A DNA stretch of 60,884 nt, filler included, from Jimgerdemannia flammicorona (taxonomy: Eukaryota), in NCBI GenBank assembly GCA_003990765.1. It is 3 parts of 3 records of this genome, joined end to end, with 100 filler letters (N's around TTAATTAATTAA, not from the genome) between each part and the next. Parts side by side here need not be neighbours in the genome. Positions count along the whole stretch, not along the records: positions 20,332 to 40,558 come from RBNJ01001730.1; 2 more parts are not named here. One strand, 5' to 3'. Within the stretch, counting starts at the first letter, position 1; every line of letters starts with the position of its first letter. Under the pieces are notes generated by a model that was given only the letters and a program-made list of their open reading frames with translations, was not told where the DNA came from and searched no databases. This document shows, one piece after another, positions 17,212 through 44,716 of this stretch. The position numbers were made by a program, and so were the translations under genes.

Positions 17212-17212
17212 C

Positions 17213-17630: not shown

Positions 17631-17962
17631 TGTAATATAACAGATATATAATCAGAGAAATACAGTAGATTTCTATAACTCTTCTTGACTCCTCAGAGTC
17701 ATAAATGGTATCTGTCTGATCTCATTATCAGACTACTAGAAAATTTTTTAACCTAAGATTTATTCACTCTAAATACTGGAATATTTATATAAATTTACTA
17801 GCTATAAGGTGGCTAAGTTATGACTACATTTCCTATAAGTCACTTTTATAAGTATAGATCCTCTATATCTATAAAATCTTTACATTTGTAAAGTTTCTAC
17901 ATTTGTGAAATAACTATGATTATATATCTATTTCCTATTTTTATTTTATACTATATATCATA
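17631..17962 (-). repeat. LTR (5' LTR) of TRIM-like element
   Basis: Colinear with 10755-11103. Confidence 0.85.
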
Positions 17963-19480: not shown

Positions 19481-20140
19481 ATGGAAAACTTTATTCAATT
19501 AAATAAGCCCGGTCTCAACAACCAAGGCACCATTGACGTTGAGGCTTTCCTGACTGCGCGTCTCGACTCGGTCCGCGCCAAGATCAAGGCCCAGCTCTCG
19601 TCCTTCGATCAGAGGGCTTGGACCTTCGACGCCGCCTTCTACGAGGAGCGAGTCAGCGCCACCCTGCGAAAGATGAAGGAGGCCTATGCCGTGCTGGAGA
19701 AGCTTGACCTGGACCTCCAGCAACGGGTCGATCATGCCCTCGACATCCTCGAGGAGCGCTACGACAGCCTGACCTACTCCCTCCCGCATATTAACGCCAA
19801 ATCTCTGCCCTTCCTCGAGCGCCTCGACGCCGCCGTCCATATTCTCGAGCAGAAATACGAGGAACTCGAGTGCGCCAATCTAGACAGGTTCGAGCGCGCC
19901 GTCGACGGGGCCATCGATGCCACCATGCGCAAGATCGAGGAGGTCGATGAGCGGATATCTGAGGCAGTTGAGAGCGCGAACATGCAGTACGGCGCGATAA
20001 AGAAAGGGGTCAACGATAAGATCTTGCAGGCGGCAGAAACGGCGCACACACACGTCGACGCGATTAAGGAGGCAGCGATCGAGGGAGCAAAGCGGTTACT
20101 GAAGTATGACGAGCTGCCGGAGGATTGGCAACATAATCAG
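19481..20140 (+). CDS. PAQR / hemolysin-III / IZH-like membrane receptor, first exon only (rest lost in the gap)
   Basis: GC-rich, codon-biased ORF ending ..KRLLKYDELPEDWQHNQ, the typical PAQR pre-TM motif (LL.Y.ELP.W..N.YI), followed by an in-phase GTACAT donor at 20141. Confidence 0.8.
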
Positions 20141-20231
20141 GTACATTGCACGTTTGTTTTAACCTTTGTATGTGTAAGCGGAGTTGGGCCAAGTTTCTCT
20201 TTCTCTCGCTCTCTCTCTCTCTCTCTCAAAA

Positions 20232-20331
20232 NNNNNNNNNNNNNNNNNNNNNNNNNNNNNNNNNNNNNNNNNNNNTTAATTAATTAANNNNNNNNNNNNN
20301 NNNNNNNNNNNNNNNNNNNNNNNNNNNNNNN
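20232..20331. other. Assembly gap with artificial TTAATTAATTAA linker
   Basis: 100-nt N-run with a six-frame-stop linker at 20276-20287. Confidence 0.97.
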
Positions 20332-20965
20332 AAATAGCCAATGTCCCACCAGACCCACCCAAACTACTATCACTCACCCCCTCCCACCAGCCGAGATCTC
20401 AAGTCCTCCCAGTGATCCCCTTCACCTGCTGGCCTGCACTCCACCCCTAGTCTATTCTCTATCTCAACCCAAAAGTCCCCCAAAACCTCACACTCCCCCA
20501 GCCAATATTCCAGCATCTGTACCAAACCCCCAACTTGTCCTACATTATAATACTCCTCATAATCAAAACAGCCACCATCCACCAGATACCCAGTGTGGAA
20601 ATTCAGCATGACATTTCTCTACAGCATTCTCCACCATACCACCCAGAACTTGGGGGGAGGCCACTGCTGCACTTCAGCACTCTAAGACCAGATACCAGCC
20701 CAGTCCCACTCCTTGCCAATCCCGACTACCAGCCAACCACTTGGCCAAAGGTCTTGGCCAAGACCCTGCTGACACTCCACTCTATCCCCAATATCAAAAG
20801 TAACAAGTAGAGTACCCCCCAAAAGCAGTCTATCCCATCACCACATACGAGGACCCCACAACCCCTCCCCCTTATTGCCTTGCCAGTGTAGACCAATTCA
20901 GTACACTCCATTTACCACTCCCCACCAAAAGCCCTTAAATCGCAGCCACTGAATTCCATGAAGCC
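20332..20965 (-). mobile_element. LINE fragment (copy C, 3' region of ORF2, 5'-truncated)
   Basis: QMLEYWLGECEVLGDFW..WEDLRSRLVGG is homologous to copy A 107-517. Confidence 0.8.
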
Positions 20966-20969
20966 CTAT

Positions 20970-22745
20970 CAGAGAGTTCACTTTATTACCAATCAGTCTA
21001 TGTTATACTAATATAGATGAACCCCTCTCTAATCTCACAAGGAGCTCCTCCCCCCTTTCCATCACCCTAAAAAGTTACTATCCCCCCTGCCACCCCAATT
21101 CTCTCCCCACTCTGTCTGTAAATCTTCTCTACAAGTCTTCTATAGAGCTTCCCTCTAGGATCCCACCCCTACTACTAACTATTCAAAAGCTCTAATATCA
21201 ATCATTCCTATCTCACAACTCACATTCTAAGTACTAATCTCTGACCATCCTCAAATACATATAGCCAATATCTGATAAGTCCAATTCAAATAGTCAGAAC
21301 CCACTCAATAGTTAACTACTTATTACTAACTCCTCTCACCAGCCTCCTCCAGAGATCATCCCACCTCCTATCCACTACCAGCCCAGGTAGGTTAACCACT
21401 ATCTGACTCTTGATTACTCTTCAAAAGACTCCCATTACCTCATATACCCCCAGCCAGTACTCAGGGATCTGTACTACTCCTCTCTCTTGTCTAACATTAA
21501 GGTACTCCTAATACTCCAAGATACTCCCTTCCACCAGATATCCTGACCAAAAGTTCAATATCATATTGTACCTCAAGAACCTCTACCATACTATTTAAAA
21601 CTTAGGAGAGATCTACTGTATCACTTGCTTGCTCTATGATCAAATGCTATTTCAGTCTCACTCTTTACCAATCTCCACTCTCTGCTAAGCTTCTAATCAC
21701 AAATTCCTCCCATGCTCTCAAAGATACTCTATACTATCCTCTAAACTGAAGTTATCCACTAGTATGCCCCTCAACAGAAGCTAGTCCCATCTCTATATCT
21801 AGAGTCCTCAGTCTATCTCTCCCTTATCACTCTACCATTAGAGGTCAATATATTGAGCTCCATTAACCACTCCCTACCAGAAACTTCTAAAGCATATCTT
21901 CTGACTCTCCTCTAGTGCTACTAGAGAAAGCAAGTCACCAGATATACTATGGAAAGAAAACTGTACCTCCCATATCTGCTGTATAAGAGATATTTACTCT
22001 CAATCTCTCAACTCACTAACTTGCTTCAGTCACCATATCTATAAGTAGTGTAGGTGCTTGGTAAAGTCTACCAGACCCTGCTCCCTCTAGTCTATCAGTA
22101 ATATCAATATCTCTCAATCAATCTGACTCTACTACCCTACTCATATTCAGATTCTAATTATCTTTAATAACCTCTTAATCACTTATACCAGAAAGTCTAA
22201 GTGATATCCCAGATACCACAACTTAGGCAGCTAATATATATTTAACACTATCACTCTTTCTGCCAGAGAGATATAACTGCCACCTCACTCAAGGAGCATA
22301 TTCCCCCACTCTATCAGCCATTACTTCCACTATCTCCTAGATAGTAGGGAACCATACATATGCTGAGAAGTAGATCTCCAGATAGCAAACCACTTCTCTT
22401 ACTGAAATAACTGTTCTAATCTTATCCCCACCCATTATCTCTCTATTTAGTACCAGAGTCTCACACTTATACTAGTTAAGCTTAGTATCAGAGCACTCTT
22501 CATACCATTCTACTGCTCTCTTCAATATTGCTACATCCTTTACAGAGTCCAGCCCAACTACTATATTATCAGCAAAGGCCCCTATTTTCCAATTTACTCT
22601 AAGAATGTTCAACCTTCCCACCTTATACCTAATCTTGTCCAATAGAGACTCTAGGAAGAGGATATAAAGAATTAGTAATAGCAGATCTCCCTGTAGTACT
22701 TCTCTACTTAGGGGGGATGAAATCTCTCTGTATTTATTTATCACA
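20970..22745 (-). mobile_element. LINE fragment (copy D, RT C-terminal half to 3' end, 5'-truncated)
   Basis: QGDLLL..WKIGAFADN (22472-22744). 3' end with minus-strand AATAAA near 20977 resembles the start of copy A. Confidence 0.82.
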
Positions 22746-25680
22746 GTTGAACTACTAGTAGTAGAGTTACTGATATGCCTTAAGATACTAGTGCAGAGTG
22801 TGGTGGTGTTCTTTAAGTCTGAGTGAGTTGCTGGAGTAACTGTTATAGATCTAGTATGAGGGTCTGATAGATAACTATCTATTATTCTATAGGTGTATTT
22901 TATTCTAAGGTAAGTATATCTCCTTTGGTAGTATATCTAGAATTTTATTTAATAAGATACTCCTCCTCTTCTTTGCTTTGGTCTTCATGTAGCTGAGTTT
23001 ATTCTATATCAAAATAGATAATATCAGTTATATATATACAAGATTTCAAATAGGTTTAAATCAAAAGCTGTTTCTAGTTCTGCTTCAAATTCAGATAGAG
23101 TTCAAGCTGGGCCTGCTTCTAGCTCAGGGTCTGGTTGTTGATGAAGGATTTCTCTGGCTTCTTCTTTAAGAATTTAGTAGGCCTTAAAATTCTGAAAATA
23201 ATAGTATAGAGCAGTCTTAGTCCTAGTAAAGTGATAGTCAGTAGAGTTGAGCTACTTGGCTACAGAGACTTAGACTTTATAAGAAACTAAGGCTAGGAAG
23301 ACAGCTGCTGGTTATCCTAGATTACTTGGTTTTGTAGAGCTTATAAAACTCTTATTAAGAAGAGTAAAGAAGGCTTCTATAAGACCTTCTTCATCTTGAC
23401 TTATAGAGTATAGAGCAAGAAGTTTAGTAATTAGAGTTTTGCCTATCCGCTGATTTAATTGGAGTACTTCTTTATATATATAAAGCTTGTCCCACTTATT
23501 ACAGGTATAGAGGTCTAATTGTCCTTATATATTAGGTTTAATTTGCTCCAGATTGTCAGATGGTTCAGAATAAATTCTAGTTTAGTGATTGGACTTTATA
23601 CTAACTTGTAGAAATTTTTATAAAGGATTGTAGCTAAGTGAGAAAGCATTTTGAAGTAGAAATAGATTGTAAACTGCTACTACTAAGTTATAAGAGTACT
23701 TTGTTATAGTACTATTATATAGTTCTGAAAGAGTTTTCTAGAAGTTCTGAATATTCTGAAAGACTATGTTCTTAAGATCAAGATCAATTTCATATAGAGC
23801 ATGCCCTCTATACTTATTGATTTTAAGATTATATTGATATCTTAACCAAAATCCTTTTTTGGGCTTATTCTAAATATTGAGAATATTCCTTATTTCAGAA
23901 AGTTCAAGAAACTAAGACCAGCTTAGTTAAATTGATATATTGCTATAGTCAATACTTAGTTAGAAAATTTCAAGATCTAGATAGGAGTGAGATCTATTAT
24001 AAGTAGTATGAGTTTACTTAAGAGTAATTTGTGAGTTATTAAATAGATTTATTCAATATTTATGATATTACTATTAGCTATTACTAGGAGTAGTGTGTGA
24101 AGGAATATTTGTATAGAGAAGTGTTCTTGACTATTTATATCTGAATTTCTGAGGTCTGGAGAGGAGGTATTTATATTAATGGAAGGCTATCTAGACTATA
24201 CTAAATATGAGTATAACACTTTAATGCTTAATGAGTCAGAATATAGTCATGTAGTATAAATATAAACTGATATATCAAGAGATCAACTGACTGCTGAGTC
24301 AGTATATAGTTATATAATATAAGGCTAATATAACTATACTAATACTTCTAAGCTATTTATAGATTTATAAACTATCTAAATATTCTCCAATAAGGTCACT
24401 ATTGATAATATTATCTTTAATGAAGTAGTCATCAAGAAAGAGTGGTTCTTGGATTATATCTCTCTATTTATTCAAATAGTAATATATTAGAACTAGATTG
24501 CCATCTTACAGAATAGTATCATCTGTTTCATATACTAGATATAGTGTTAGTAGGCAAAGAAGGGGTATATTGTCTTTACTTTCATCAGATTTGCAATTAA
24601 CATACCTTCAGTAAGTTATAGTACTATATATTATAAATTTTAGTAAGTTGGTAGCTATTTTTCATATTGCCCATATCTGAGAGATGGGGTAGTTGGTTCT
24701 ATCTCAAGAGTTGTCTGGAGGTAGATTGTGTTCTCTAGTCTCTTCTTTATAGTTAAAGTAGTCAGATATGAATGCAGATTAATACTTATATCAGTGGTCT
24801 TTATTCCAATAGGTCTCATAAACAGTTATGAACTATTACAAGTTCATCAGCAAGATTGGCAGAGATCCTTGGCTGAGGGTTATATTAGTGTCAGAGGAAT
24901 CATTGTCTCCAACTTCATTATTATCAAACTAGATTATATTATAAATATCTTTTATGATATATTCAACTTAAGGTATTTGCAGGATATAGTTATCTGAATA
25001 CAGAAAGGATCTATCTGTGGTTTGAGTATACTTGATATATTTGTGATTGAGTTCTTATACTATGTCATCAATTTGGTCATTAGTTAGAGTAGTAACTATT
25101 TCAGCCATAGTAACTCAGAGGTAAAGAATAAAGGTATTATACTCATAAAAGAGTTCTTAATATTTATAGGTAATGAGTTTTTGATGTTGAGATATTTCAG
25201 CTATATTATAGTAATAGTTAATCATATCTTTTAGGAAATAGCTAATCTGATAATAGCTTGAGATTTGTCTAATTTGATGGATCTCACTAAGTATATTCAG
25301 AGCATTCTATCAGACTTCTATAAAATAGAGAGGTACTAGGCTATAGATATTTATGAGGAGCAGAGTGCTGTAGCTTGGTTGACAAATAACATTCTAAATA
25401 TCAGTATAGATATAGTTATAGATTCTAGTAATCATAGCTGGATATATGTTCAAGAGTTGTAGTTATTGTTTTGGTTTATTATGGTTCTCTATTTTGATAT
25501 ATTATATATTTAGTATATATACTTTCAATACTGATTGAAAAGATTCTGTTTTCATATATCTTATATTTTATGACTTTGAGTTGACTCAGCTTTGTAATCT
25601 TGTATATAATTTCTGAATTTGTTCTAAAGGTGATATGTGATTTTGGTAGCTTAGAGATTGTGTACTTATATATATATATA
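22746..25680 (-). mobile_element. Decayed minus-strand retroelement-like segment: gag-N-terminus-like ORF relic (~23600-22760) preceded by an unidentified ORF relic (~25108-23900)
   Basis: Stop-riddled but coding-like frames. QQPDPELEAGPA*TLSEFEAELETAF weakly resembles QPDQPDNIGGPAGDFEELAQELEDLI in the gag of the 29133-39441 element. Identity is not established. Confidence 0.4.
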
Positions 25681-26885
25681 GGAATAAAGCACATTATATT
25701 TCTTTATATTAATCTATTTGGCCTTTCAGCTGATAACTGTATACATACATTCTATATATTCCTCTCTATAAGAAATAGTATTGGTGAGATAAGTATCATT
25801 GCACTAGCCAATATATTGAAGACAAATATGAGTCTATAGAATCTGATCCTAGATAGTATATATAAATAAAGTGCATTATATTTCTTGGTATTCATCTGTT
25901 TAGTCTTCTAGCTGATAACTATATATATATATATATCTTATATATTCCCCCCTATAGTGAATAGTATTAGGAAGATAGAAGCTATCATATTAGCTAATAT
26001 ACTGAAGATAAATATAGATCTACAGAACCTGAGCCTATATAGTATATAAGAATAAAGTATATTATATTTCTTTGTATTTATCTGTTTGATCTTCCAGCTG
26101 ATAACTATATATATATATATATGTATCTCATATATTCCCCTCTATAGGAAATAGTATTAGCAAGATAGATATCATCATACTAGCTAATATACTAAAGATG
26201 ATTACAGATCTGCAGAATCTGAGTCTATAGTATATAGAAATAAAGTATATTATATTTCTTTACATTTATCTGTTTAGCCTTCTAGCTGATAACTATATAT
26301 ATATATCCTATATATTTTCCTCTATAGAGAATAGTATTGATAAGATGGGTGCTATCAAACTAGCTAATATGTATACTAAAGATAAACATGGGTTAGCAGA
26401 ATCTGAGTCTGGGTAGTATATAGGAATGAAGTATATTATGTTTCTTTGTATTCATCAGTTTGATCTTTTAGCTGATAACTGCATATATACATATTATATA
26501 TTCTCCTCTATAGAGAATGATATTGATGATATAGGTGTCATTGCACTAACTAATATGCTGAAAATAAACACAGGTCTGTAGAACTTGAGCCTAGACTATA
26601 TATAGGAATAAAGTATATTACATTTCTTTGCATTCATCTGTTTAGCCTTCTAGCTGATAACTATATATATACATCCTGTATATTTTCCCCTATAGTAAAT
26701 GATATTAGTATAACAGATATCATTGCACTAGTCAATATGCTGAAGATGAATATAGGCCTACAGAATCTGAGTCTAGATAGTATATAGAAATGAAGTATAT
26801 TATATTTTTTTACATTTGTCTGTTTGGCCTTTTAGCTAATAACTGTATGCATATATCTCATACATTTCTCTCTATAGGGAATAGT
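25681..26885. repeat. Tandem array, ~182-188 bp unit, ~6.5 copies
   Basis: Units start at 25681, 25863, 26049, 26237, 26423, 26605 and 26787 (GGAATAAAGT..TTTCTTT..CATCTGTTTGGCCTT..AGCTGATAACT..). Confidence 0.92.
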
Positions 26886-28078
26886 AAAAATTATACTAGC
26901 CAAAGTGTGGATTGTGAACAGAATAAGTTTTTAGAAATAGAGTATATATATAATTTTTTTATATATAATTTCTCTATTGCTGATAGTATTCACAGAAATA
27001 AGATAGAATGAGCAACCTATTATAATAGATATCTATATATAATAAATAAATAAAATACAATATAATTACTATCTATATATCTTTATTCCTATAAAATCTA
27101 TCTCAAGTCAAATTTTTAACTATAACAACTATCCTCCCATTTGTCATTTATTATAGACAGAGGCACTACCTTCTACTTCCACCTACTTACTAACTGATTT
27201 CTCTTCTAAATAATAGCTCTATTTCTATAATATCAATAATTCAGACTACTAAACTCACAATAGACAATATCATATACATTAGAATAATTAAGGTTAGATA
27301 TTCAGTAGTTAAGGTCAGATATTCAGTAGTTAAGATTAGTTATTTGCTTGATACTTATTAACTGAGTATCTGGGCTATATTGTTATTTCAATTGATTAGA
27401 CATATTTATATTTATAAAAGAAAACCAAACTACCTCAAAAGGTTTTGATGATCTATATATATAGTTTGGATAGAAGATTCTTATATAGCTGAGTTTGAGT
27501 AACTCAGTATATAAATGAGAAGGTTACAAAAACAAAAGTCTATGCAAAAAAGTTAAAAAGAATAAGTTAGGAAACAAATCTGTATCAAAAAAGATAAAGA
27601 AATAATGAAAAAGACAGAGAAATAAAAATATAGAAAAGGCAGATATAAGTAATAATATATACTTTCAAAGCTTAATATATATACTTGATAGTTATATATA
27701 AAAGAGCAGAGAAAAATGATATTTTACATTATACTAATATGTGATATATTATATTATATAATTATATCTGATGTCTTGAGATATATATAGCTCTAAATTC
27801 AAGATGTGATTAACTAAATAAATATCTACCTCTATACTAATATTATTATTCTTTATATTATTCTTTCACCCAACTCTATTTCAGACTGACTTATAACTAT
27901 ATCAATGACTCCATCATATTGTAGAGGTATTGAATACAGATGTAAGTTTTCTGAAATTTATATAATTTATAATTAATGCTGATCAATACTCTGTAACTCT
28001 ATACCTAACTACTCACTTATATATATTATACTATATATTTCATTTTCTTTACTAAATAAGATATTGGCTATATAGTAC

Positions 28079-28625
28079 TAGTACTCCAAATAAGCTGATT
28101 CAGATCAATTTAAATTAACCATTGTTTTGGTTTTCAAATTAGTTAATTAAATGTTTACATCAATAACTTAATTAATAATTATCCATTTTTGATAATATTG
28201 ATGTCATTTGAAAGCCCTTAATAAGGTCTTTCTAATAATACCAAGAATATTGAAATTGGATTATATATTGCTGAGTTATCAAGGAAAATGTCTGACTTAC
28301 CAATTTCAACTACTGATTTTGGAAATTTCTTCAAAAGACCATTTTCCTTAATAGCTTGGTAATGTATCATCCGATTTTAATATTCTTGATATCATTAGAA
28401 AGGCCTTATTAAGGGCTTTCAAATGACACTAAGATCATCAAAATTAGATAATTATTCATTGAGTTATTGATATAAATATTTAATTATCTAATTTGGAAAT
28501 CAAAACAATGGTTGATTTAAATTAATCCAGATCAGTTTATTTTTTATCTAAGTTGATCTGGATGGGATTCAATTCAAATCCAATCAAAATCTAATCTGGA
28601 TTAAATTAACTCATTCAGAGCACTA
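28079..28625. mobile_element. hAT-like non-autonomous foldback element (MITE) with ~205-bp internal inverted arms and a decayed 8-bp TSD
   Basis: TIRs TAGTACTCCAAATAAG and revcomp TAGTGCTCTGAATGAG. Flanks TATAGTAC (28071-28078) and TATGGTAT (28626-28633). Inverted arms 28088-28293 and 28336-28542. Confidence 0.8.
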
Positions 28626-29132
28626 TATGGTATAATATAACTCTATAATTATATAGAAAGATATATAAAGTATAAAGATATAGAACTAGAATTTATAATT
28701 TCTACTTGGTAGTAGCAATATTAATTATTAAAAAGGACTTTCTGTAAAGCTAAATTACAAATACAATAAGCAGTAATTTGAGCAAACTAAAATTATGAAA
28801 TTTCAGAAATTGTATTCTATATAATATAAAATATTTTAAGTTAGACTTTTAGTTAGTTTGGAATTAAAGATAGATTATATAATTAATTATAAATATTAGT
28901 ATATTTAAAAATTAATACATTTTATATTCAATATACTTAAATTATTATTATATAATTATTCTTACCTAATGAATTATAAATATATCTATAATTTAAACTA
29001 TATTTTACTAAATATATATAATTTCTAAAGGAATAATACTTGCCAGAGTACTTTAATTTTACTTTCATATAAATTATATTAAATCTAGTAATGGTGTTTA
29101 CTAAGTGCTAATTCTAAAATTTATATATATAT

Positions 29133-30515
29133 TGTGACAAACTAAGATATATCGCACAAATTATACCTTAGTCAGATGATATGAACAATTAGTCAGATGA
29201 TGTGAACATACAGCATAGTAACCAGTAACCATTGCTGTGGAAACTGTATAAATAGCCAGACTACCAGATAAGGTATATCTGTACAGGACCTGCACACCTG
29301 TGCTGGACCTGCACACTTGTGCTGAACCTGCACAACTTGCCATAAGTAGTAAATCTATAGTTAGCCACATAGCAACCAGATAGCAACCAACTTGTATAAA
29401 TTACCCCAGAGATAAGAGTGAATAAACCTCAGTCCAAATTGAAGTGTAAACCAAAAAAGCCTCTAAAGATTGAGCATTGGTCTCCTTATTCCTACTCTGG
29501 TCCACTTTCCAATACAAAGCTTGAAGATTTTACCATCAAGTTTGATTGAAGAACTTCACTACCTTTGGAATTATTGGTACTCTTGTCAGACTAAGCCTGA
29601 AGAATCCAAGTTTGCCACCCTTTGAGTTATTTGCCACATTCTCAGAGAGCCTGTCTTTCTTACCACAAGCCAGTCTCTTGATACAACTTTGCAGTAATTC
29701 ATTTGCACAAATGAAGCCAGTCTAGATATAACTTGTTAAGAACTCAAGTTATTTCCCAGTTGAAGCTGATTCAGGAAGAATCCATGCCATCTGAGTTATT
29801 TTCCAGAAGCCCACTAATTTAGGAGAATCCATGTCATCTGCTATTTTTAAGTTATCTGCATTCCCAGAAGACCCACACCACCCAAGTATTATTTCTAGAA
29901 GAGCCTGATCCATGTCATCCAGAGTTATCATGCCATCCGAGCTATTTATTGTTCCTAGTAAGCCCAAGCTATCAAGTTATCCACTACCAGTATAGTTCGC
30001 AGTAAGAAGAATCTGCAATATTCAAGAAGCCTACTGCTTTTGGAGAAGCTGTGCCAAATCAAGCCATCTGCCAGAAATTACATATTTTTGGAAACCCATT
30101 GCACTATACAGAGATTGTTGTACTATACAAGATTATCATACAGAAATTACATAAGGAGAACTGCTAAATTGCTAGACCATTATATATAGAGATTATCATA
30201 TTATACAAAGAAATCACCCACTACTCAAGAAGGAAACTGTTCATACTACACATAAAATTCTACTAATTCCCAGTTGATCTAAGAAGAAAACCCATTCACA
30301 CAAATCACCACTATACCCAGAGAACTGTCCCAATAAGGAAATCACCAGAACTGCTTGCAGATATTCTGCTTTGACTATTATATCACTAAACACCAACAAG
30401 GACCTCAGGAATCTTAGAATATTTTGTTGATTTTGACAAAGTAACTAAGGACTCAAGCCAAACTACATCAACCCCCAACCTTGTAATTTGCCTTCATTGA
30501 GCCAGGCATGTTATA
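29133..30515 (+). repeat. 5' LTR (1383 bp)
   Basis: Colinear with 38047-39441; TATAAAT boxes and AATAAA inside. Confidence 0.95.
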
Positions 30516-30584: not shown

Positions 30585-32021
30585 TTGAATATATTTGATA
30601 TAACACCAATCTCTGCCACCACAGGAGAATCAGTTATCACTAGCATCTGGATAGGAAGAGAAGTAATCACATCAAGACTTGCCAACTACCCAGCATTAGA
30701 AGGATCCCAACCAGAACCAGAAGGCAGTATAGCCCAAAATCCCCAACCAGATCAACCAGATAACATAGGTGGCCCTGCTGGAGATTTCGAAGAACTTGCA
30801 CAAGAACTAGAAGATCTTATTATATAAGCCTGAGATCTTACAGCCAGATACCCCATATCAGCCCCATCAATCTCACTAATAGAACCTTTACCACAACCTC
30901 TTACAGAGTTGGAAGTAGCTCCTATCAGAATACCTAAACTCATTCCACTTCATCCAAGGTCCAGAACACTATCTTCAGGATATCCAAGCACCCCTATTTC
31001 CAGTGATAGTTCAGAAAGTGAACCAGAATCAGAATCCAGACCAGAACCAGAATTAGAAAAAAGTAATAATGAAATGGCCACCTTATTGCCAACCTTTGCA
31101 GAATACCCAGATGAAGACTCCAGAGAATTCCTTGATGGAATTGAAGGAATTGCAGCTCTGAGGAACCTCTCAGATAAAAGAAAAATTGCCATCTACAAGG
31201 CTTAGCTCAGAGAACCAGTTAGAGGAATTTTCCATCAAACAGCAGACAACCCAGATTCAGAACTGGTGAGACAGATACAAGTAGCAGTATCTTATGAGCT
31301 AGAATATGTGGCCATGGTCCACTGGCTCATTGAAAAGTATGCAGGAAATGAAATCTACCACAAGGCTCAAGAATCCATTGTAGGGATAAAGATGAATCTT
31401 GGAGAATCACCCAGAGCCTTCTTCATAAGAATCCAGAAGGGAATGCATGCTGCCAGGTTCAATGCCACTAACTAGGACATCATAGGTCCAATGACTTTCA
31501 TGAATGGAATTTTCCCAAACATTGTCCAGCATGTCTGCACCCTAGGCATCAGAAGGTCTGAAGAGCAAGTAGATGTAGCTCAAGGATTCTTTGATGTTAG
31601 ACAAGGAACTACCTGGAGTGATCATGGCAAGAAAGAAGATAAAGAAGACATCCTGGTCAAAGCCCTGCAGGGACTCCTTCAAGGACAAGAAAGATCTGAA
31701 GAAAGAAGGCCAGCCAAGGAAAAAAAGAAGGATAGAAGTGAAATCCAAGACCTTAGCTCCAAGTTGGACTGATTGGTTGGACAGATTGAAAAACTCACCA
31801 TATGTGAAAATCAGAGCTACCAAGACAACAGAGGATACCCACCACAGAGGAGCCAAGGTTATTCACCAATAGATAACAGAAACTACCAGCAAGAAGAAAG
31901 AAGATACCCTGTCCAAGATAGAGCTCAAGTCCAATGCTTCCACTATAGACAAATTGGACACTATGCCACTGAATGTAACAACAAAAGAAGTGACCGAAGG
32001 GACTCAGAATCATCAAACTGA
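30585..32021 (+). pseudogene. gag: gag (disrupted) with C-terminal CCHC zinc knuckle
   Basis: LPTFAEYPDEDSREFLDGIE capsid-like region; QCFHYRQIGHYATEC (Cx2Cx4Hx4C with one C>Y transition). Confidence 0.85.
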
Positions 32022-32589
32022 AGGAATGACACTCAGTATAGAAAGACTGAAGCTCATCCTGTTGAAGATTTTGAGGAGGTAAGCAATAGTAAAGACTACA
32101 GTGACCTGGACTTATACCCTACCAAGGTTACAACTTGGAAAACAGTCTACCCAGTAGAGAAAAGGAAGAGACCTGTAGGAAGACCATCCAGAAATATCAG
32201 CAGAAGAATTATCCAGGAGAAAGATGAAGAACATGAGGAGGAATAAGTAGAAATACCTCCCCAAACCCTCTCACCTTTTGTTCCTGAGACAAATGAGTTG
32301 CCACCAGAAGATGAAGAAATGGAACAAGAAGAATGAGAACCTGCTACCCCAAAGCCTAAGCAGAAGTACACTCTGAAGACTATGCCTAAAGATATCTATA
32401 ATAAAGTCTGGCAGAATATTCAAGAGGCCAAGATGGAAGTCCCACTCCTGCAGTTCCTGCAACTGATACCAGCTGGAGTCTGAAACAAATTATTGAGAAC
32501 AACCAGATCCAGCACTGGCTGAGTTCCAATTCCACAGCAAGGACCAGTTCCCATCTCTGCCCAAGTGGCTGGAAGGCATGTCAGCACTT

Positions 32590-35500
32590 ACCTACATGGA
32601 GATATTGAAGGACAAAAGATAAAGATCCTCATAGACATAGGAGTAGCTATCTGTATTATAGCTAAATGGTTCCTGGACACCCTCCAATGGCCCATTGATG
32701 GACCATCCAACCTCAGCATCATAGTAGCAGATGGAACCTGAACTCAACCCCTTGGAGAAGTACAAAACATCACCATCTCCCTTGGACACATTCAGTTCTC
32801 TATCCCAAAAGCTGTTGTCACTAAAGCTGTCACCTATTATATAATTCTTAGCACCAACTGGATGAAGGAAATGAATGCAGTTGTTGATATTGGTCAACAA
32901 GTACTCAAGTTTGACTACTGAGGCAAGAAGTACAGAGTCAAGATGATCAGTTATGAGCAATTAAAAAAGAAGAAGAAGGTCACTATTCAGGAGGAATATG
33001 CCAGTAGTGAAGAATCTACCACAGAAGAAGAGGAAGAATCTGAAAATGGAAATGATCCCAGACTCAATACTGATCAGAAGACAATGTGTGGGCCAAGAAC
33101 ACTATCTCTATTACCATTAGAGCAATTGCAGGAGAAATCAAAGGATGCCCCACCTACCTTAAGAGATACAGGTGTCTCAAGCATTCTTCCAAGATCATGG
33201 GAACAAGGAAATCATCTGGTACAGCCTGCTCTGAGTACAGAAAAAAGAAGAAGAAATGCAGACATGTTTCAGAAACACCTGCAACCAAAGCTGTGGAAGT
33301 ATAAGCAATTTGGGGACAAGAATCATCCAAGGAAGAAGAAGTTCCAGACCAAGAAGTTCCTGAACAAGAAGCACTTGAAGAAGAAGAGGTCTCCAAACTC
33401 ATTCTCTGGGATGACTCTCAGTGGACACCACCTGAAGACAATGACCCTTGGAATATAGAAGAAGGACCCAACATAATCACCATTATCCCCAAGAAAGAAA
33501 CTCATCAAGAAAAGGCTTTTCAGCTAGGAAGATGCCTACATCAAATGGTCTTCCACTCTCCCCAAGACTACTACTATCAGTGCCATTTACTAGACCAACA
33601 GGAAAGACATAGACCCTAGAGACCAGAACCCCTAAATACAGTTGCACAGTTAACTACCTTCCAAGAAGTTACTACCAAGTTGCAAAGTCAATTTAGAGGA
33701 CAAGGCCTCTTTACCCAAATAGATGTATACCCCTTGTCTACTCTTCCACCAACTTATGACCAAGATGGGTACCAATTCCCAAAATAATAAGAGATCAACA
33801 ACCAGGAATATCATTTCTGAGCAATGGAATATTGTAACCATTGAAGATACTCAGATTGCTGAGACTGCAGGCATCAGAAGATCCATCTCAGTTATGATGT
33901 TGCAGTTCACACCTTAAAGAGAGGAGATAACTGAAGTCAGATTTGAAAAAGCCAGACCAAAAAGCCAGGAAGAAGAACTCTCAAGATCAATGATTTAGGA
34001 GAAGACATCCTAGCTCTCATCAGACATGCAACCCACCAAGAAAGGGCAGAAGATGCCACCAACTTCATAGAAGCCCTAGACCCTACATGAAGAAGAGGAA
34101 TCAACTATCTCTGAGACCTCTCTACTGAAGCCAGATGGTCACACCTCAACCTCAGAGCCTGGAGACTCTCTACTAGTGGAGCTTCAGCCCTAGGACAGCC
34201 CAAACTCAGCAAGGACATTGCCCAGTATGCCCTGCTACATCACAAGGCCAAACCCTCGACCAAAGCCCACCCAGAAGATGTAGGGTATGATCTTCATAGT
34301 CTGGAGGATAAATCTATCAAATCTGAAAAAACCTTTATGATCAGAACCAGATTAGCCATACAGCCACCCCAAGGAGCTTACATCAAACTGATCTCAAGAT
34401 CTGAACTTGCCAGACAAGGAATAACTATAGAAGGAGGAACTACTGACCCAGGGTATATAGGTGAAATCAAGGTTATCCTACACAATAGTAGTACAGAATG
34501 GCACTGAATCATTAGAGGACAGAAGATTGCCCAAGCAGTCTTCATGAAGGTCATGATCCCACAATTACAAGAAGCCTCTGAATTGACTGAAGGAACAAGA
34601 CAAGCCAAAGGATTTGGAAGTTCAGACAAGAAGGTAGTATACCTCCTTCAAGTCAACCACCTTAAGAGGAATGTTCTCCAGCAAGTATATCAGCAATCAG
34701 TCAGACTGCACAAGAATCTTATCCTAGAGCCCAGAGAACAAACCACCTTCGAAATCTTTGCACTACCCCACCCCAGAAACCTTTTCTTTGAACCCAAGGA
34801 AGATATTCCACACCTGAACATAGAGGGACACACATTCCCTGACAAGATGAATCTAGTATACTCCCAAGCAACCAACCAAAGTTGGGAGACCATCATCTTG
34901 CTGAAAGGAACCATCATAGGACATCTGGTGCCTTTTCTCAACTGAACTCATAGGGAAGTTTATGAACTAAACCTATCAGGAAATGGCAAGAGGTCTCAGA
35001 AGAAAGGAAAGGCCCCTCTGTGACCCAGGAGACAGTGAAGCCTTCCACCAACATTGGAGAAGAATTGACACCCCATCAACAGCAACAACTAGTAGAACTT
35101 CTCAACAAATATCAAGATATCTTCACTACCAATTATGGCAACCTACCATACAATCCATCATATCATTACAGCATAAATATAGGAAATGCAACACCCATCT
35201 GACAGAAACCCTACAGAATACCCCATCACATAAAAATATTCAAAAAAAGAGCACATCCAAAAACTCTTAGACAATGGAGTCATCTGACCCTCTACCAGCC
35301 CCTGGGCCAGCCCTATACTTATTGTACCAAAGAAAGGAGGATGGAGACTCTGTGTAGATTATAGGAAACTCAACTCAGTCACTGAAAAGGATACCTATCC
35401 TTTGCCCAGAATTGGGATCAGTTACAAGATGCCAGATACTTCAGCAGTATGGACCTCTTTACAGAATTCCATAAGATCCTCATGGACCCCAAAGACATTC

Positions 35501-37507
35501 AAAAGACAACCTTTCTTGCCCTAGGAAAACTGTTTGAATATCTCCAAATACCCTTTGGACTTTTCAATGTACTCTCCACCTTTCAGAGGATGATGAATTC
35601 AGTCTATGCCCCCTTGATTCACCACTGCCTGGTTGTATATATAGACGATTCCAACATCTATTCAGCAAATTTTGAAGAACACCTGCACCACCTAGAGGAA
35701 TTCTTCAAGCTCACCTGCAAGAATCACTTGAGACTGAATGCAAAGAAATGCTACTTTGGGAAATAGAAACTCAAATTCCTTAGATTCATAGTTTCAAAAG
35801 AAGGAACCCATGCAGACCCAAAAAAAACTGAGAAGATCAACAATTGGCCAGTACCTAAGACCCGAAAGGAAATACTATCATTTCTGATGCTAGTATCCTA
35901 CTATAGAAGGTTTATCAAGGACTTTGTCCAAATCACTGCCCCAATCTGAATCCTTCTCAAATAAAGAAGTACCATTCAAATGGACAGAATTATAAGAAAA
36001 AGCCTTTAAAGAACTCAAGAACTACATGTCTACAGTACCAATCCTTGTGTACCCCAATCTACAGAAGCCATTCATCATACTTCTAAAGATGACCTTGGAG
36101 CAGTTCTAGCCCAAGAGGGACCTGATCAAAAACACCATATGATAGCTTATATAAGTAGAGCTACTAATCAGCAGCAGATGAACTATGGTAGCACTAAACT
36201 GAAATACCTTGTAGTTATATGAGTGATCACCCTGTTTAAGTATTACCTCATTGGAAAAAAGTTCACCCTGATCACAGATCATATAGCTCTCAAATAGCTA
36301 TTCAACCACAAGGAACTCACCAGAATCCTAGCCCACTGGATTCTTATTCTTCAGAATTACAAAATCACTATCATCTACAAAGCAGAGAAAGCTCACAATA
36401 ATGTTGATGTACTTTTCCACCAGCCCCAATGAACCAGAAGAAGGGTATTCCAAGGAACTACACCCTAAAGGAAGCTCCTCAGACCATCAAGACACAAGAA
36501 GATCTCATCCAAAAAGAACATCAGAAAGCCCACCAAGGATAGGCAAATATAGAAGAGAAGCTGCAAACAACACACCAACATTGGTCCAACCTTAGAACAT
36601 AAGTCCAGGACATACTCAAGAAATGTGACATCTGCCAGAAGTACCAAGATGGAAGAACTATCAAGAACCACTGCAACCAATTACACCACCAGACAACATC
36701 TTTCAGAGATGGAAAATAGATGTAATTGGACCTCTACCAGTTACACCAAGAAGAAACAAATATATCTTTGTACTTGTAGAACATCTGACCAAGTGGCCCA
36801 AGGCTTTCCCAATGGAAATCGCAGATGTCTTAACTATTATAGGCCTTCTCCATAGACTTACACTCAGATACAGACCCCTAGAAGAACTCATCTCTGACTG
36901 AGGCACAGAATTTATCAATAACATAATTACAAGTTATACCCAAATTCACAAGATTCACCTCAAATGGACCACATCATATCACTCTCAGACCAATGATATG
37001 ACAGAAAGAATGAACCAGACTATCAAGAAAGGACTTGCTCAAGTCAATCCTACCAATTGGGACCTCTGCTTACCTGAGATCCTATGGGAAATTTGGAACA
37101 CCCCTGCTGCCTCCACCAAACAGAAGCCATTCAAAATGATGTTTGCTAAGAAAACCAGAACTACTGACCATAAGAATCTCAGAGATCTTCTCAAGAAGGC
37201 AGAACAGTTACATAATCAAGCCCAAGGTCAGATTATCAAAGCCTAAGAAAGACAAAAGAAGTACTATAACTAGAAACAGAAGGATCAGAAGATCAAGATT
37301 GGAGATTAAGTATTAGTTTGGAGAAGTATAATTGAAATGAATTTTGCCACCAAATTGGAGTCCAAATGGAAAGAACCTTATTTTGTACACAATATCAGAG
37401 GAACTAGCATCTATTTAAGAAGTATGGATGGACAAACTCTGAGGACACCAGTATATATCAATCATCTCAAAATATACCTTTCTCCACATCATGAATCAGA
37501 GAGTTGA
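32590..37507 (+). pseudogene. pol: pol (disrupted): aspartic protease, accessory spacer, dUTPase, RT, RNase H, integrase (no chromodomain)
   Basis: PR KILIDIGVA ~32625; [24 protein letters not shown] ~35632; RH LGAVLAQ, ITDH, HNNVDVL; IN CDICQK, IDVIGPLP, ISD*GTEF, YHSQTNDMTERMN, WKEPYFV. Confidence 0.92.
34226..34627 (+). pseudogene. dut: Trimeric dUTPase domain within pol
   Basis: All five motifs recognisable: VGYDL, SRSELA (RSGLA), GGTTDPGYIGEI, QKIAQ, RQAKGFGSSD. One TGA stop at 34505 (CGA>TGA or TGG>TGA). Confidence 0.93.
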
Positions 37508-38006
37508 CAACTGCCTTCAAACTCTTATCCTTAGCTCATTTCAATTACTGTCAGTTCTCTTACCCCAATTTTGCAAAGTCAATGGGAACACTCTCCAGAA
37601 GATCCAGATTCATCAGGAGAATCTTGTCCTGGCCAGATGATTGCTACAGGTCTATCAACTCCAGGCCTATTATGCAATTGGAGAACAATTGCAGAACCTC
37701 CCAGTCCTAGAACAAACATACATCAGAAATACTACAGGACTATCAAGAAGAGATGCTACTGCTACAGACAGACTGTACACCCTTTATAAGTGAAACCCTG
37801 TAGCCCTGATACAAGTACAATTCTCCTAGTATGATACATAAGGAATGAACCTAGCCACCTATCTGAGCATCATCAATGCTGTTGAAGTCCTATTCCCAGA
37901 AAAAGAAAAAGAACCCTTGGAATGGAGCAACCATAGTACAGATGATGAGGATGATAAAACAGATATTGATGCAGAAGATACTTACCCATACTGAGATAAT
38001 GACTAA
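37491..38006 (+). pseudogene. Extra ~171-codon ORF between integrase and PPT (unknown function)
   Basis: Single frame MNQRVDNCL..QAYYAIGEQL..DRLYTLYK..acidic tail, interrupted only by TGA/TAG/TAA stops that transitions can explain; overlaps the pol stop. Confidence 0.65.
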
Positions 38007-38046: not shown

Positions 38047-39441
38047 TGTGATAAACTAAGATATACTGCATGAATTATACCTTAGCCAGATAATACAAAC
38101 AATTAGCTAGATGATGTGAATACACAATATAGTAACCAGTAACCATTGCTGTAGAAACTGTATAAATAGCCAGACTACCAGATAAGGTATATCTGTACAG
38201 GACCTGTACACCTGTGTCAGACCTATACACTTGTGCTGGACCTACACAACTTGCCATAAGTAGTAAATCTATAGTTAGCCACATAGCAACCAGATAGCAA
38301 CCAACTTGTATAAATTACCCCAGAGACAAGAGTGAATAAACCTCAGTCTGAATTGAAGTACAAACCAAAGAAGCCTCTAAATATTGAGCATTAGTCCCCT
38401 TATTCCTACTCTGGTCTACTTTCCAATATAAAGCTTGAAGATTTTGCTGCCAAGTTCAAGTGAAGAACTTCACTGCCTTTGGAATTATTGGTATACTTGC
38501 CAGACTAAGCTTGAAGAATTCAAGTTTGCCACCAAGTTCAAGGAGAACTTTACTGCTCTTTGAGTTATTCACCGTATTCCCAGAGAGCCCACAAGCCAGT
38601 CTCTTAATGCAACTTCACAGTGATCCATTCATGTAAATGAAACCAATCTAGACATAACTTGTCAAGAACCTGAGTTGTTTCCCAGTTAAAGCCAATTCAG
38701 GAAGAATCTGTACCATCTGAGTTATTTCCCAGAAGCCCGCTGATTTAGGAGAATCCATATCATCTACTATTTTCAAGTTATCTGTATTTCCAGAAGACCT
38801 ATATCACCTGAGTATTATTCCTAAAAGAGCCTGATCTGCATTATCTGAAGTTATCATACCATCTGAGCTATTCATTGTTCCCAGTGAGCCCAAGCTATTG
38901 AGTTACCCACCACCAGTATAGTTCCCAGTAAGAAGAATCTGTGATATTCAAGAAGCCTGCTGCTTTTGGAGAAGCCATGCCAAATCAAGTTATCCACCAG
39001 AAATTGCATACTTTTGGAAACCCATTATACTATATAGAGATCATCACACTACACAAGATCATCACACAGAAATCATATAAGGAGAACTGCTAAATTACTA
39101 GACCATCACACACAGAGATCATCACACTATATAAAGAAATCACTCACTACTCAAGAAGGAAACTGTTCGCACTACACATGAAATTCTATCAATTCTCAGT
39201 TGACCTAAGAAGAAAACCCATTCACACAAATCACCACTATACTCAGAGAACCATCTCAATAAGGAAATCATCAGAACTACTCACAGATATCCAGCTTTGA
39301 CTATTATACCACTAAACACCAATAAGGATCTTAGAAATCTTAGAACATTTTGTTACTTTTGATAAAGTAACTGGGGGCTCAAGCCAAACTACATCAACCC
39401 CCAACCTTGTAATTTGCCTTCATTGAGCCAGGCATATTACA
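38047..39441 (+). repeat. 3' LTR (1395 bp), preceded by PPT AGTGGGGG (38035-38042)
   Basis: Colinear with the 5' LTR; ends ATTACA. Confidence 0.95.
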
Positions 39442-42106: not shown

Positions 42107-43186
42107 CTACGTCATCCACATCCCGCTCCCCCCAGCCCACACAAGCCCGAACCCCTCGAGCGCAAATTTGAATCTGAATCTCTCCCTCCCAAAGTTGAAT
42201 TTCACGGTTACCGGCCCGTCGGCGCCGAAGCTGGGGAAGTACGTATGCTTGATTCCGCGGAACGCCTCTCCCACGTTCCTTCCGTTCTTGGTGAAGAAGA
42301 TGGCGCCCTCGGCGGGTAGGTACCCGCACCCGACGACGTCTCCGACCTCGCCGAACCCTTCTGCGTACGGCAGGCCGCCCTCAGAGTCGTCGCAGAACTT
42401 GTTGCCGTCGTCGCTGTGCCATCCCACGCTGTGTTTGTTCCATCCAGGCATTCGGAACAACGGGTACGGCCGCGTGCAAAGCCCGATCGCTACGCACGTC
42501 GTTTCGTAGTACGGGTTCGCAACGATCGTCACCTCGAAGTAGTGCGCTTGCCGCATCGGCGCAGGACCGGGGAACGACGGGTTCACTCGGGGAGGGGGGT
42601 AAGATGGGTTCACTCCGGGAGGCGGATACGATGGCGGCGTGTACATATTCAGCGGGGTAGGGGGCGCGAAGGACGGCTCAGGAGTGTAGGCTGGGAGGGC
42701 CTCGGTTTGCGGCGAGGTGGGGGGGGGTTCAGACTTGTCGTCCGCGCTCGAAGCGGCGGCGATGCGCCTCATTTCCTGCGGGAGGATAAAGGGGAAAAGA
42801 CACTGGATGGTGCGGTCGGTATCGCCCTTTGGCAAGACGGGCTTCCTAGGAAGGTGGGGCTTCTTAGCGCCGAACAGGCCAGTGACCGTCTTCTGTGGGT
42901 AGAACTCAACGGTGAGCTCGTCGGGCAAGACGACGAGGGCGTTCAGGATCTGCTGGGCGACATCCATGCGCAGTGCGGGCACGCCGTGCTGCAGCAGGTA
43001 GCGACATGTCTCCGGCGTAGACGGTGAGTCGATGACCGCGGCGAAGTCGGCCGTAAAGCGTTCGCTCCGACCGAAGGCGGCCTCGGAGGCGTTGTTGTAG
43101 GCGCCGACGCGTTGGGATTGGACAAAGTTAGTGGTGCTGGCGTAGTCATAGCTGGGGAGGGCATACTTATGGTGTGGGTTATCCAT
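42107..43186 (-). CDS. Ssh4/Ear1-like SPRY-domain protein with PY motifs (359 aa, single exon)
   Basis: YFEVTI..VAIGLCTRPYPLFRMPGWNKHSVGWHSDDG..GDVVGCGY..IFFTKNG..FPSFGADGP..FNFG is an Ssh4-type SPRY domain. Confidence 0.9.
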   Translation of the reverse strand: MDNPHHKYALPSYDYASTTNFVQSQRVGAYNNASEAAFGRSERFTADFAAVIDSPSTPETCRYLLQHGVPALRMDVAQQILNALVVLPDELTVEFYPQKTVTGLFGAKKPHLPRKPVLPKGDTDRTIQCLFPFILPQEMRRIAAASSADDKSEPPPTSPQTEALPAYTPEPSFAPPTPLNMYTPPSYPPPGVNPSYPPPRVNPSFPGPAPMRQAHYFEVTIVANPYYETTCVAIGLCTRPYPLFRMPGWNKHSVGWHSDDGNKFCDDSEGGLPYAEGFGEVGDVVGCGYLPAEGAIFFTKNGRNVGEAFRGIKHTYFPSFGADGPVTVKFNFGRERFRFKFALEGFGLVWAGGSGMWMT

Positions 43187-44716
43187 GTTTCGAGTTGTCG
43201 AGTTGTGGACTATGTGGCGACGCAAAGGTCTGGTCTTATATCCTTATCATTTGGTGGCTTTCCATGACGTCATCTTACTTCCCCTTCTATGCTATTTCCA
43301 TTGTTCTTACCTTACATCACTCTGACATCATAAACACTATCCTCATTCCAAAGAAGAATTTGTTGTGCTCAAAAAAAAATGTGTTGTACTGGTCTTTTCA
43401 TCCAAGAGGTCACACATTCCAATAGAAAGATATCTGATAGCTGAAATGTTAAATCAAATACTAAGCTGAATGTTGTAAATGAATATATTTTAAGATAATT
43501 GGAATAGTTGGCTAGAGTGATTTTTTTTTTTTTTTCTTGGCTCAGCTTGAAGATCTATATTCCAAGTAACTCTATTTATTTCCAATCAAGTAAAAATAAA
43601 GAATAATTGAAAAACTATAAAGTAAGAAACAAAAAGATACTGAGAACCATTGCACTTTGTCTGATTTTTGTTTCAGCGCAAATTCACATGTAACCTTTCA
43701 GCAGACCCTGCTCTATGTTCGCATCCAAGAGCCTGATGGTCACCATGAAGCATATCTCTTCCACACAATCGCACATAAGGGCTGTTAAAACATAATCTAT
43801 CGAGTTAAGTGGTGTGTGCCGTTGGCGGACCGACCCAGTGAGTACTCTAACGGAACAAAGAATAGAAAAAACTGAGAAGCTGTCCAAGGTCTGCAAAATC
43901 TCTTCGGGTGCAACTTTGCTGATTACGTGTTCTAGAAAAGTACATACCAAAAATATGATGGATGACTCATGTAACATAATCTACTGTCGTTTAATAGAAT
44001 TTTTTACCCACGGAAGGGCGGCGTGCATGGGTTAGTGGCAACCGTTCAAAAGGGGGAGAATGTATTCAGGTACAAACGTCTGTATACTGCAATTGGGCGT
44101 GAGAAAGGTGTCTTACTTCAGGTCAGGAAATTTCTAGCCCCTTTTTCTCGTCCAAAGCCATGATGGGTTATTTTTTTGTTTTCTTTCTCAAAATGGGTAT
44201 ATATTTATTCTGAATCCGACAGACACTTGGCCTTCTTTCTCCTTTGTAGTCGTCGAGGGTCGAGGGCTCTCTTCCAATTCCTCCTTACTTTGCTGGACAA
44301 TAGCACGCAGAAGATTCCAGGCAAGGAGAGTGGGTTGAGGATTGGCGACTGTCAGTATATAGGGCAAGATACCAGACAAGAGCCCGAACCATTAACACGG
44401 ATATGATTGCGATGTTGCATGATTCCGGGGTTAGGCAGACATCAACAGGGGGTACGTTTGCGATGGCTAGATCATGATGGGAAAGCTGGCACACGGAATT
44501 GTGACATCATCATGCAGGAATTTGTGACTGGGTTTGCAGGCAGGCGCGAGGCGATGAGGCCATGGAGCATGTTGGCGTTTGTCCGTGGAAAGGGGCGAAA
44601 CAGGTTCCCATTGTCGAATATATTTCAAACAAACCAGGAGCTTGTTTCATTGAAAAACCTGCATCTTTCTTTCTCCTCAATCAATTCCCCCACACCCCAC
44701 ACTCCCTCCCGTCCTT

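Follow-up and report, generated by a model that had tools for sequence, protein, structure and literature searches.

The window, as we call the whole stretch of 60,884 nucleotides from Jimgerdemannia flammicorona analyzed here (assembly GCA_003990765.1; three parts joined end to end), contains a Ty3/Gypsy long terminal repeat (LTR) retrotransposon of 10.3 kb that houses, between its aspartic protease (PR) and its dUTPase, three motifs rich in Cys and His. Two LTRs enclose the gag and pol of this element, and the integrase (IN) follows the reverse transcriptase (RT), as is expected of Ty3/Gypsy elements. According to Pfam and tblastn, the domain order is gag, PR, linker, dUTPase, RT, RNase H and IN; the dUTPase, in frame with pol, stands between PR and RT, which makes this a Gypsy element of the PR-dUTPase-RT type. 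The copy is long dead and not expressible: its LTRs differ by 15%, 13 in-frame stops fall within the 624 codons of 33074-34945 (11 in the 384 codons of 33074-34225), and the RT and IN sequences are spread across several frames.

The original prediction, made from the sequence alone, had placed three different zinc-binding-like motifs in the PR-to-dUTPase linker, all in the frame of the dUTPase. Translation recovers all three strings in that frame (position mod 3 = 2), motifs 1 and 2 as listed in Table 1 and motif 3 as CNH*RYSDC*DC at 33833-33868, together with a fourth motif that had been overlooked (K1; Table 1). The word "different" does not fit motifs 2 and 3, which have a common shape consisting of C-x-[H/C], a short hairpin and C-x2-C; none of the four motifs has the order or spacing of the retroviral CCHC pattern C-x2-C-x4-H-x4-C (PF00098). 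Composition by itself is weak evidence for such motifs. In the dUTPase frame the linker contains 27 Cys and His residues, compared with 21.8 +/- 4.1 in 500 dinucleotide shuffles, and two 20-residue segments with at least four Cys or His, compared with a mean of 0.39 in the shuffles, 24 of which reach two. Motifs 2 and 3 are nevertheless more than chance, because they align ligand for ligand with the Cys and His of intact relatives.

Knuckles A and B in intact relatives

The read-through translation of 33074-34945, with X at stops, was searched with HMMER against 1.84 billion representative proteins, which gave 14,779 matches at E up to 0.001, nearly all of them via the dUTPase. One of these, P0003, is an intact metagenomic protein of 1179 amino acids with the order gag-PR-linker-dUTPase (E 7.2e-58; query residues 88-623 on protein residues 587-1125). 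With tblastn it aligns to the window both in the PR frame (31392-33056, P0003 residues 3-551, E 1.1e-57) and in the dUTPase frame (33347-35071, 30.0% over 601 columns, E 9.9e-67), and residues 300-374 of a second protein, P0022, match 33407-33628 (E 6.7e-5). Since P0003 aligns through it, the linker between PR and dUTPase is homologous coding sequence and not filler. A further match, P0002 (226 amino acids), is a sister copy that covers the end of the dUTPase and the region after it.

Across 271 aligned linker columns, 72 of which are identical, P0003 has seven Cys, all inside two small knuckles (653, 666 and 669 in the first; 762, 764, 776 and 779 in the second), and the window has five, all five on Cys columns of P0003 (hypergeometric P 1.8e-9, a figure that is inflated somewhat because aligners reward Cys-Cys matches). 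In the other two Cys columns of P0003, the residues of the window are Tyr, whose codon is a single transition from Cys, and His, which can ligate zinc as well; furthermore, H655 and H785 of P0003 are also His in the window. On this alignment, motifs 2 and 3 are shown to derive, in decayed form, from two small Cys/His knuckles with four ligands each, which we call A and B. The conservation of their ligands in related families, which the original prediction had proposed as a check, bears out its view that Cys/His modules of this linker are foreign to canonical Ty3/Gypsy pol, as far as motifs 2 and 3 are concerned.

Knuckle A has the consensus C-x-H-G-x-R-F-Y-S-P-S-x2-C-x2-C, with [RH] at the Arg position in the form found in P0022 and P0152. 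The window keeps the first, second and fourth ligands and has a Tyr codon (33572-33574) at the third. In its tight form, that is C-x-H, a hairpin of 10-12 residues with [RH]-[FM]-Y, and C-x2-C, the knuckle is present in five of the 152 proteins examined (P0003, P0018, P0022, P0119 and P0152), compared with a chance expectation that we estimate at ~3e-6 over the 41,535 residues. It lies ~40-90 residues ahead of the dUTPase in P0022 (PR-linker-dUTPase-RT-RNase H, at the lower end of this range) and in P0152, which is 55% identical to P0022 in the knuckle region. In P0018 (gag-dUTPase-...) and P0119 (dUTPase-...-PR) it takes the form C-P-H-[GS]-x-R-M-Y-x7-C-x2-C and stands ~30 residues past the dUTPase. 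Overall, knuckle A or a near form occurs within ~30-230 residues of the dUTPase, in the orders PR-knuckle-dUTPase-RT and gag-dUTPase-knuckle-PR. In eight of the proteins listed, the dUTPase has gag or PR parts as neighbors; the tight motif is present in five of these and a looser C-x-H-x15-C-x2-C in another, P0011. Seven other listed proteins have Copia-type parts or a dUTPase on the integrase side, and the tight motif is in none of them.

Knuckle B has the general form C-x-[C/H]-x5-11-C-x2-C-x5-H. Compared with P0003, the window has His in place of C764 and a loop that is six residues shorter.

Pfam gave no family at E up to 1 on the linkers of P0003 and P0022. The zf-CCHC family (PF00098) was matched in P0003 in gag only (residues 169-184) and in none of six knuckle-A sequences, one of which reached 17.6 bits (E 0.0033) with zf-ChsH2 (PF12172, a rubredoxin-like zinc ribbon), below the cut-off of 23.2; a knuckle-A profile had no match among PDB sequences at E up to 10, and the motif 3 region had none in Pfam at the same threshold. 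In the AlphaFold model of P0003, the predicted local distance difference test (pLDDT) score stays below 50 throughout linker residues 501-885; the exceptions are 642, 652-655, 666 and 674, which coincide with the knuckle-A ligands. Low-complexity acidic or basic sequence with such scores makes up most of the linker, which speaks against the single module of ~400 amino acids that had been envisaged. The P0003 model has a helix (643-650) before knuckle A, two bridge residues, and a helix (667-674) that starts from the C-x2-C; in the P0119 model, helix 186-202 likewise begins at the C-x2-C. A treble-clef or zinc-ribbon-like finger would show such a layout, seen here in models of low confidence.

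Other approaches to finding relatives added little. A word-index protein search gave no match to the read-through query at E up to 0.001 among 4238 candidates, recovered P0003 alone from 997 candidates when residues 590-890 of P0003 were used, and found P0022 and P0152 among 14 candidates with residues 285-400 of P0022; an atlas look-up with P0003 residues 610-890 returned no usable match. Scanning metagenome contigs with a two-row knuckle alignment produced 144 pattern matches and one tblastn-confirmed locus (L001), which was rejected as a chance match on a high-GC bacterial contig with a relaxase-like open reading frame (ORF). Viral-contig scans with the knuckle alignment and with P0002 gave nothing useful, and the six loci that a degenerate knuckle-A DNA pattern picked out of viral contigs were all out of frame with stops.

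Motif 1, its upstream twin and the reading frame

Sister copies of the element were drawn from four public soil-metagenome runs (X1-X4), which supplied 782, 51, 41 and 59 contigs, respectively, at a likeness of at least 80%; results on sister differences rest on 40 of the 699 differing places listed. They bear on whether motif 1 is read in a genuine frame. At 33060-33074 a shift changes the frame (position mod 3) from 0 to 2, and the two lengths given for it in Table 1 are estimates. In each of the four runs, the contigs whose alignment starts at 33075 differ from the window before that point, and X1 has further contigs that depart from it behind 33068. By visual reading in the PR frame, the sequence of the sisters stays open into frame 2 of the window, and the sister differences listed include no other insertion or deletion between 33075 and 33346. 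It follows that, from 33075 onward, the frame of the dUTPase is the genuine one, which places motif 1 in a real reading frame. Insertions and deletions in the sisters (X1-X4, 32500-35500) are mostly multiples of three, namely 3, 15 and 21 bases. The balance of synonymous and non-synonymous differences private to the window was also tried as a way to choose the frame; it reflects the neutral decay of a dead copy and holds no frame signal.

The sisters also restore a ligand in K1, which lies 26 codons upstream of motif 1 and is alike in shape. They read C-x2-C-x5-C-x2-H there, with G for A at 33156 in 11 contigs from the four runs (depth 35.3/35.3 in X1, 7.93/9.93 in X2, 5/5 in X3 and 10.2/10.2 in X4); one divergent X4 contig retains TAC (Tyr), in a loose end before 33182. 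Since the loss of Cys to Tyr is seen in the gag knuckle, in K1 and in knuckle A of the window copy, it is plausible that the Tyr of motif 1 is likewise derived from Cys, giving C-x2-C-x6-C-x-H. Neither tblastn nor MAFFT found a counterpart of motif 1 in P0003, P0022 or P0152, and 33057-33346 of the window is ~58 codons longer than the corresponding part of P0003, the nearest intact relative. Whether motif 1 and K1 are two more knuckles (C-x2-C-x5/6-C-x1/2-H) in a family-specific insertion is, in our judgment, about evenly balanced.

The original prediction had read motif 1 as the first half of a fungal Zn2Cys6 cluster, a reading that we could not uphold. The Zn2Cys6 pattern is C-x2-C-x6-C-x5-12-C-x2-C-x6-8-C. 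Motif 1 has two Cys, with Tyr in the second position, and no Cys in the 12 residues that follow, so that a second Cys triplet is lacking. Pfam gave no family, Zn2Cys6 (PF00172) included, on 33074-33304 at E up to 10, nor any on the read-through 33074-34291 at E up to 0.01, tests that are weakened by the decay of the copy; against PDB, the motif 1 region had one meaningless match (E 1.2).

Other parts of the element and of the window

The features of the element are collected in Table 1. The active-site stretch of its PR is D-I-G (32628-32648), and the PRs of both P0003 and P0022 match it with tblastn. The stronger of the two dUTPase matches spans 34115-34507 in frame position mod 3 = 2. A structure search with the P0003 model took in residues 1-74, a capsid C-terminal domain (Z 9.6), and residues 885-1003, the dUTPase, which matches solved dUTPases over 118 residues (Z 16.5; root mean square deviation 2.1). 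Ahead of the dUTPase, P0003 has helices at 814-826 and 831-839, predicted with low confidence. The conserved region that follows the dUTPase has no Pfam family, and its counterpart in P0003 (1040-1123) is confidently predicted to be beta-rich (pLDDT 68-86). On read-through frames, Pfam found RVT_1 and RT_RNaseH in 34954-36426 and rve in 36332-37789.

Table 1 Features of the Ty3/Gypsy element, with positions counted along the window
Feature	Positions	Strand	Evidence or remark
5' LTR	29133-30513	+	blastn of the element on the window (pairs with 38047-39439, 85.0% over 1405 columns); also repeat search
gag CCHC knuckle relic, CFHYRQIGHYATEC	31935-31976	+	aligns to zf-CCHC of P0003 (tblastn, MAFFT); Tyr codon (TAT) at second Cys position
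Aspartic protease (PR)	32523-32920	+	frame position mod 3 = 0, 2 stops; Pfam Asp_protease_2 weak, E 0.011
Acidic linker after PR, PR frame retained	32922-33056	+	alignment of P0003 residues 3-551 stops at 33056
Frame-change site; window lacks 10 or 22 bases of the sisters (+1 shift either way)	33060-33074	+	sister contig ends
K1, knuckle-like, GCPTYLKRYRCLKH	33143-33184	+	sisters have TGC (Cys) at Tyr codon 33155-33157
Motif 1 (K2), ACSEYRKKKKKCRH, C-x2-Y-x6-C-x-H, in a purine-rich run	33224-33265	+	translation; frame from sisters
Trp-rich lead-in to knuckle A (L-W-D-D ... W ... hydrophobic strand ... E-K-x-F)	33398-33532	+	aligned in window, P0003, P0022, P0152
Knuckle A (motif 2), CLHQMVFHSPQDYYYQCH, C-x-H-x10-C-x2-C	33533-33586	+	aligned to P0003 C653, H655, C666, C669; same four in P0022, P0152
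Knuckle B (motif 3), C-x-H-x5-C-x2-C-x5-H, two TGA stops inside	33833-33886	+	aligned to P0003 C762, C764, C776, C779, H785
Conserved stretch before dUTPase	33990-34110	+	aligned to P0003 ~810-850 (tblastn, MAFFT)
dUTPase, one in-frame TGA	34225-34640	+	Pfam PF00692 in two halves, E 1.9e-14 and 7.6e-4
Conserved region between dUTPase and RT, ~140 residues	34641-35071	+	P0002, 72.6% over 226 residues (34358-35035); P0003, P0005
RT, RNase H and IN core; several frames, stops	35288-37246	+	RVT_1 E 9.5e-19, RT_RNaseH E 7.1e-24, rve E 1e-6
3' LTR	38047-39439	+	blastn, same LTR pair

Repeat-induced point mutation (RIP) was considered as the source of the Cys-to-Tyr changes and rejected: the element has TpA/ApT of 0.75-0.81 and (CpA+TpG)/(ApC+GpT) of 1.45-1.5, values that are not RIP-like, and the mixed contexts of the listed transitions also disfavor such an origin. 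Compared with the X1 sister contigs, the window has A or T where they have G or C at 231 places, and the reverse at 139 (32500-35500), an excess that fits decay of the window copy by C-to-T and G-to-A change.

Beyond the element, 6001-12000 and 24001-30000 are AT-rich (22-29% GC), the former being weakly RIP-like (TpA/ApT 1.15, second index 0.93). A tandem array at 25675-26886, with 6.6 copies of a 182-base unit and 76% matches, lies in the AT-rich block just upstream of the 5' LTR. The blocks 1-6000, 12001-18000 and 20001-22000 have 37-53% GC and an extreme GC skew (-0.43 to -0.47, +0.40 to +0.52 and -0.44, respectively). The long ORFs within them, such as those on the minus strand at 4680-5606 and 3912-4655, are rich in Gly, Glu and Val and have no Pfam family, and the blocks may represent another repeat family hit by C-to-T change on one strand. 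Three ORFs belong to host genes, namely an uninterrupted pentatricopeptide-repeat ORF of 1119 codons (53553-56912, minus strand; PPR_2, E 4.5e-85), a SPRY-domain ORF (42107-43243, minus strand), and an ORF with a match to VAR1/uS3m, a mitochondrial ribosomal protein of the fungal type (51721-52569, plus strand; E 1.4e-49), which suggests that the host is a fungus.

Competing explanations and known systems

We consider it rather probable that the linker motifs go back to putative zinc knuckles that are conserved as accessory modules beside the dUTPase and survive in the window as relics, with a role in nucleic-acid tethering suggested by analogy. The family held knuckles A and B under selection, because intact distant relatives keep both; the modules of the window are relics, because one ligand of A is Tyr, B contains two stops, and the element is not expressible. 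Each knuckle would bind one zinc ion, by way of a short C-x-H turn, a hairpin with a conserved Arg and aromatic residues, and a C-x2-C that starts a helix. So built, the knuckles might act as accessory binders of nucleic acid or of the replication complex, and might hold the dUTPase at the site of reverse transcription.

Several observations weigh against this explanation. The binding of zinc and of nucleic acid is argued by analogy. All relatives were found via their dUTPase, so that the association of knuckle and dUTPase may be an ascertainment effect, and two proteins with a PR-adjacent dUTPase (P0026 and P0116) are without any knuckle, from which it follows that the knuckle is dispensable for some elements. 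Knuckle B is common to only two sequences, the window and P0003, and the similarity of A to B is not significant (214 of 500 shuffles score as high in P0003, and 36 of 500 for motifs 2 and 3 of the window). The models are also of little help, as the whole of P0003 has a mean pLDDT of 43.4, from a seven-row alignment, with the knuckles at ~45, and the mean of 67.6 for P0119 is carried by the dUTPase, the knuckle having 52-60. Moreover, the dUTPase tree (142 columns, support on 13 of 148 branches) does not group the knuckle-bearing rows, which require five changes, a number as low as that in 331 of 500 shuffles.

Two evolutionary scenarios were dropped. The poorly supported tree speaks neither for nor against a single origin of dUTPase plus knuckle, and a recent tandem duplication of knuckle units is disfavored by local alignment scores that are no better than those of shuffles.

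It would be tempting to go further and regard knuckle A as a small zinc-binding domain, so far undescribed, which accompanies the dUTPase from one LTR retroelement to another and forms a two-part cassette with it. The knuckle would be placed on either side of the dUTPase and of the PR and be functionally coupled to the dUTPase, perhaps by keeping the clearance of dUTP tied to the complex that carries out reverse transcription, and the family of the window would have multiplied such knuckles to four in each polyprotein (K1, K2, A and B). We put this forward as a speculation that may well prove wrong.

A rival to be taken seriously, though unlikely on balance, is a purely structural or protein-protein role, in which zinc-binding knuckles fold the linker, expose the sites that PR cleaves, or serve to dock it on the RT or the trimer of the dUTPase. 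Apart from the knuckles, which stand out as islands, the linker is predicted to lack order, and the knuckles adjoin the dUTPase on either side, in P0022 at just ~40 residues ahead of it, all of which would suit such a role; the conserved Arg and aromatic residues of the hairpin discriminate little, as they fit this role and nucleic-acid binding alike.

It is highly improbable that the strings arose by accident, from the translation of a decayed linker that is purine-rich and of low complexity. The copy is full of stops, the Cys and His content of its linker is not raised, no motif has a Pfam or PDB sequence match, and motif 1 lies in an AAG/AAA run with no counterpart in three relatives, as accidents would lead one to expect. 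However, for motifs 2 and 3 accident is excluded by the coincidence of all five window Cys with Cys columns of a relative that is only ~27-30% identical, and for motif 2 by the recurrence of the knuckle-A pattern in five natural proteins; for motif 1 it is countered by a twin of the same shape whose Cys is restored in the sisters.

Equally slim are the prospects of captured host DNA- or chromatin-binding modules, with half a Zn2Cys6 cluster, that serve as a targeting or anti-silencing accessory protein, as the original prediction had it: motif 1 is spaced C-x2-[Y]-x6-C, the residues in between being basic, and with the sister form of K1 it may give six Cys (C-x2-C-x5-C-x19-C-x2-(C)-x6-C), but x5 and x19 are not among the distances that the Zn2Cys6 pattern allows (x6 and x5-12), the His that follows each triplet suggests two separate CCCH knuckles, the segment matches neither Zn_clus nor anything else in Pfam or PDB and is absent from P0003, P0022 and P0152, and no cellular protein with knuckle A turned up, in searches that could hardly find one. 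It is the IN end that governs targeting in Ty3/Gypsy elements, and these modules are far removed from it; nothing in the analysis speaks for a targeting or anti-silencing role.

If zinc knuckles are indeed conserved beside the dUTPase, their biology belongs to the element family, the window copy being a fossil without a function of its own. Knuckle A marks a domain that current libraries miss, and within the literature covered it appears to be undescribed as a domain; a search of it for dUTPase retrotransposons together with zinc fingers or knuckles turned up, among the papers listed, only a passing remark on the element Juno. The part of the literature on fungal elements drawn on here still calls it unclear why some LTR retrotransposons carry a dUTPase and how the enzyme is retained where reverse transcription takes place (PMC2864245), and a recurrent knuckle offers a testable handle on the question.

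Among known zinc modules, motif 1 resembles the fungal Zn2Cys6 cluster (Zn_clus, PF00172) in its spacing C-x2-(C)-x6-C, if its Tyr was once Cys, and in its basic residues. Unlike that family, it has no second Cys triplet at the family spacing, no Pfam match, and a His after each triplet, and it is not a member. As to whole elements, dUTPase is found at three alternative pol positions in fungal Ty3/Gypsy elements, including PosPlaTy3-5 of Postia placenta and elements of Phanerochaete and Tuber, and the part of that report considered here calls its role unclear (PMC2864245). The element in the window is like these in having the dUTPase between PR and RT, an order on record for certain elements of basidiomycetes and of bdelloid rotifers (PMC2864245; PMC5408684); in contrast, the fingers mentioned in the same part of the report are the CCHC of gag and the HHCC of IN only, none beside the dUTPase (PMC2864245).

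The nearest structural precedent is Juno of bdelloid rotifers, in which, according to the passage that describes it, the dUTPase between PR and RT is followed by an "extra Zn knuckle", a deviation from the usual layout (PMC5408684). Both have an additional pol knuckle adjoining the dUTPase. They differ in that the gag knuckles given for Juno follow C-x2-C-x4-H-x4-C (PMC5408684), whereas the knuckle in the family of the window has the order C-H-C-C with a C-x-H turn and stands before the dUTPase. The nearest functional precedent is offered by a betaretrovirus, Mason-Pfizer monkey virus, whose nucleocapsid-dUTPase fusion, as summarized in its report, combines nucleic-acid and dUTPase functions by joining a zinc knuckle through a flexible linker to a trimeric dUTPase (PMC1802613); the tethering proposed above is modeled on it. 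In the virus, CCHC fingers of gag are joined to the dUTPase via frameshift, whereas the family of the window has its own gag CCHC and, in pol, knuckles of another pattern; the likeness to that fusion would be one of function only.

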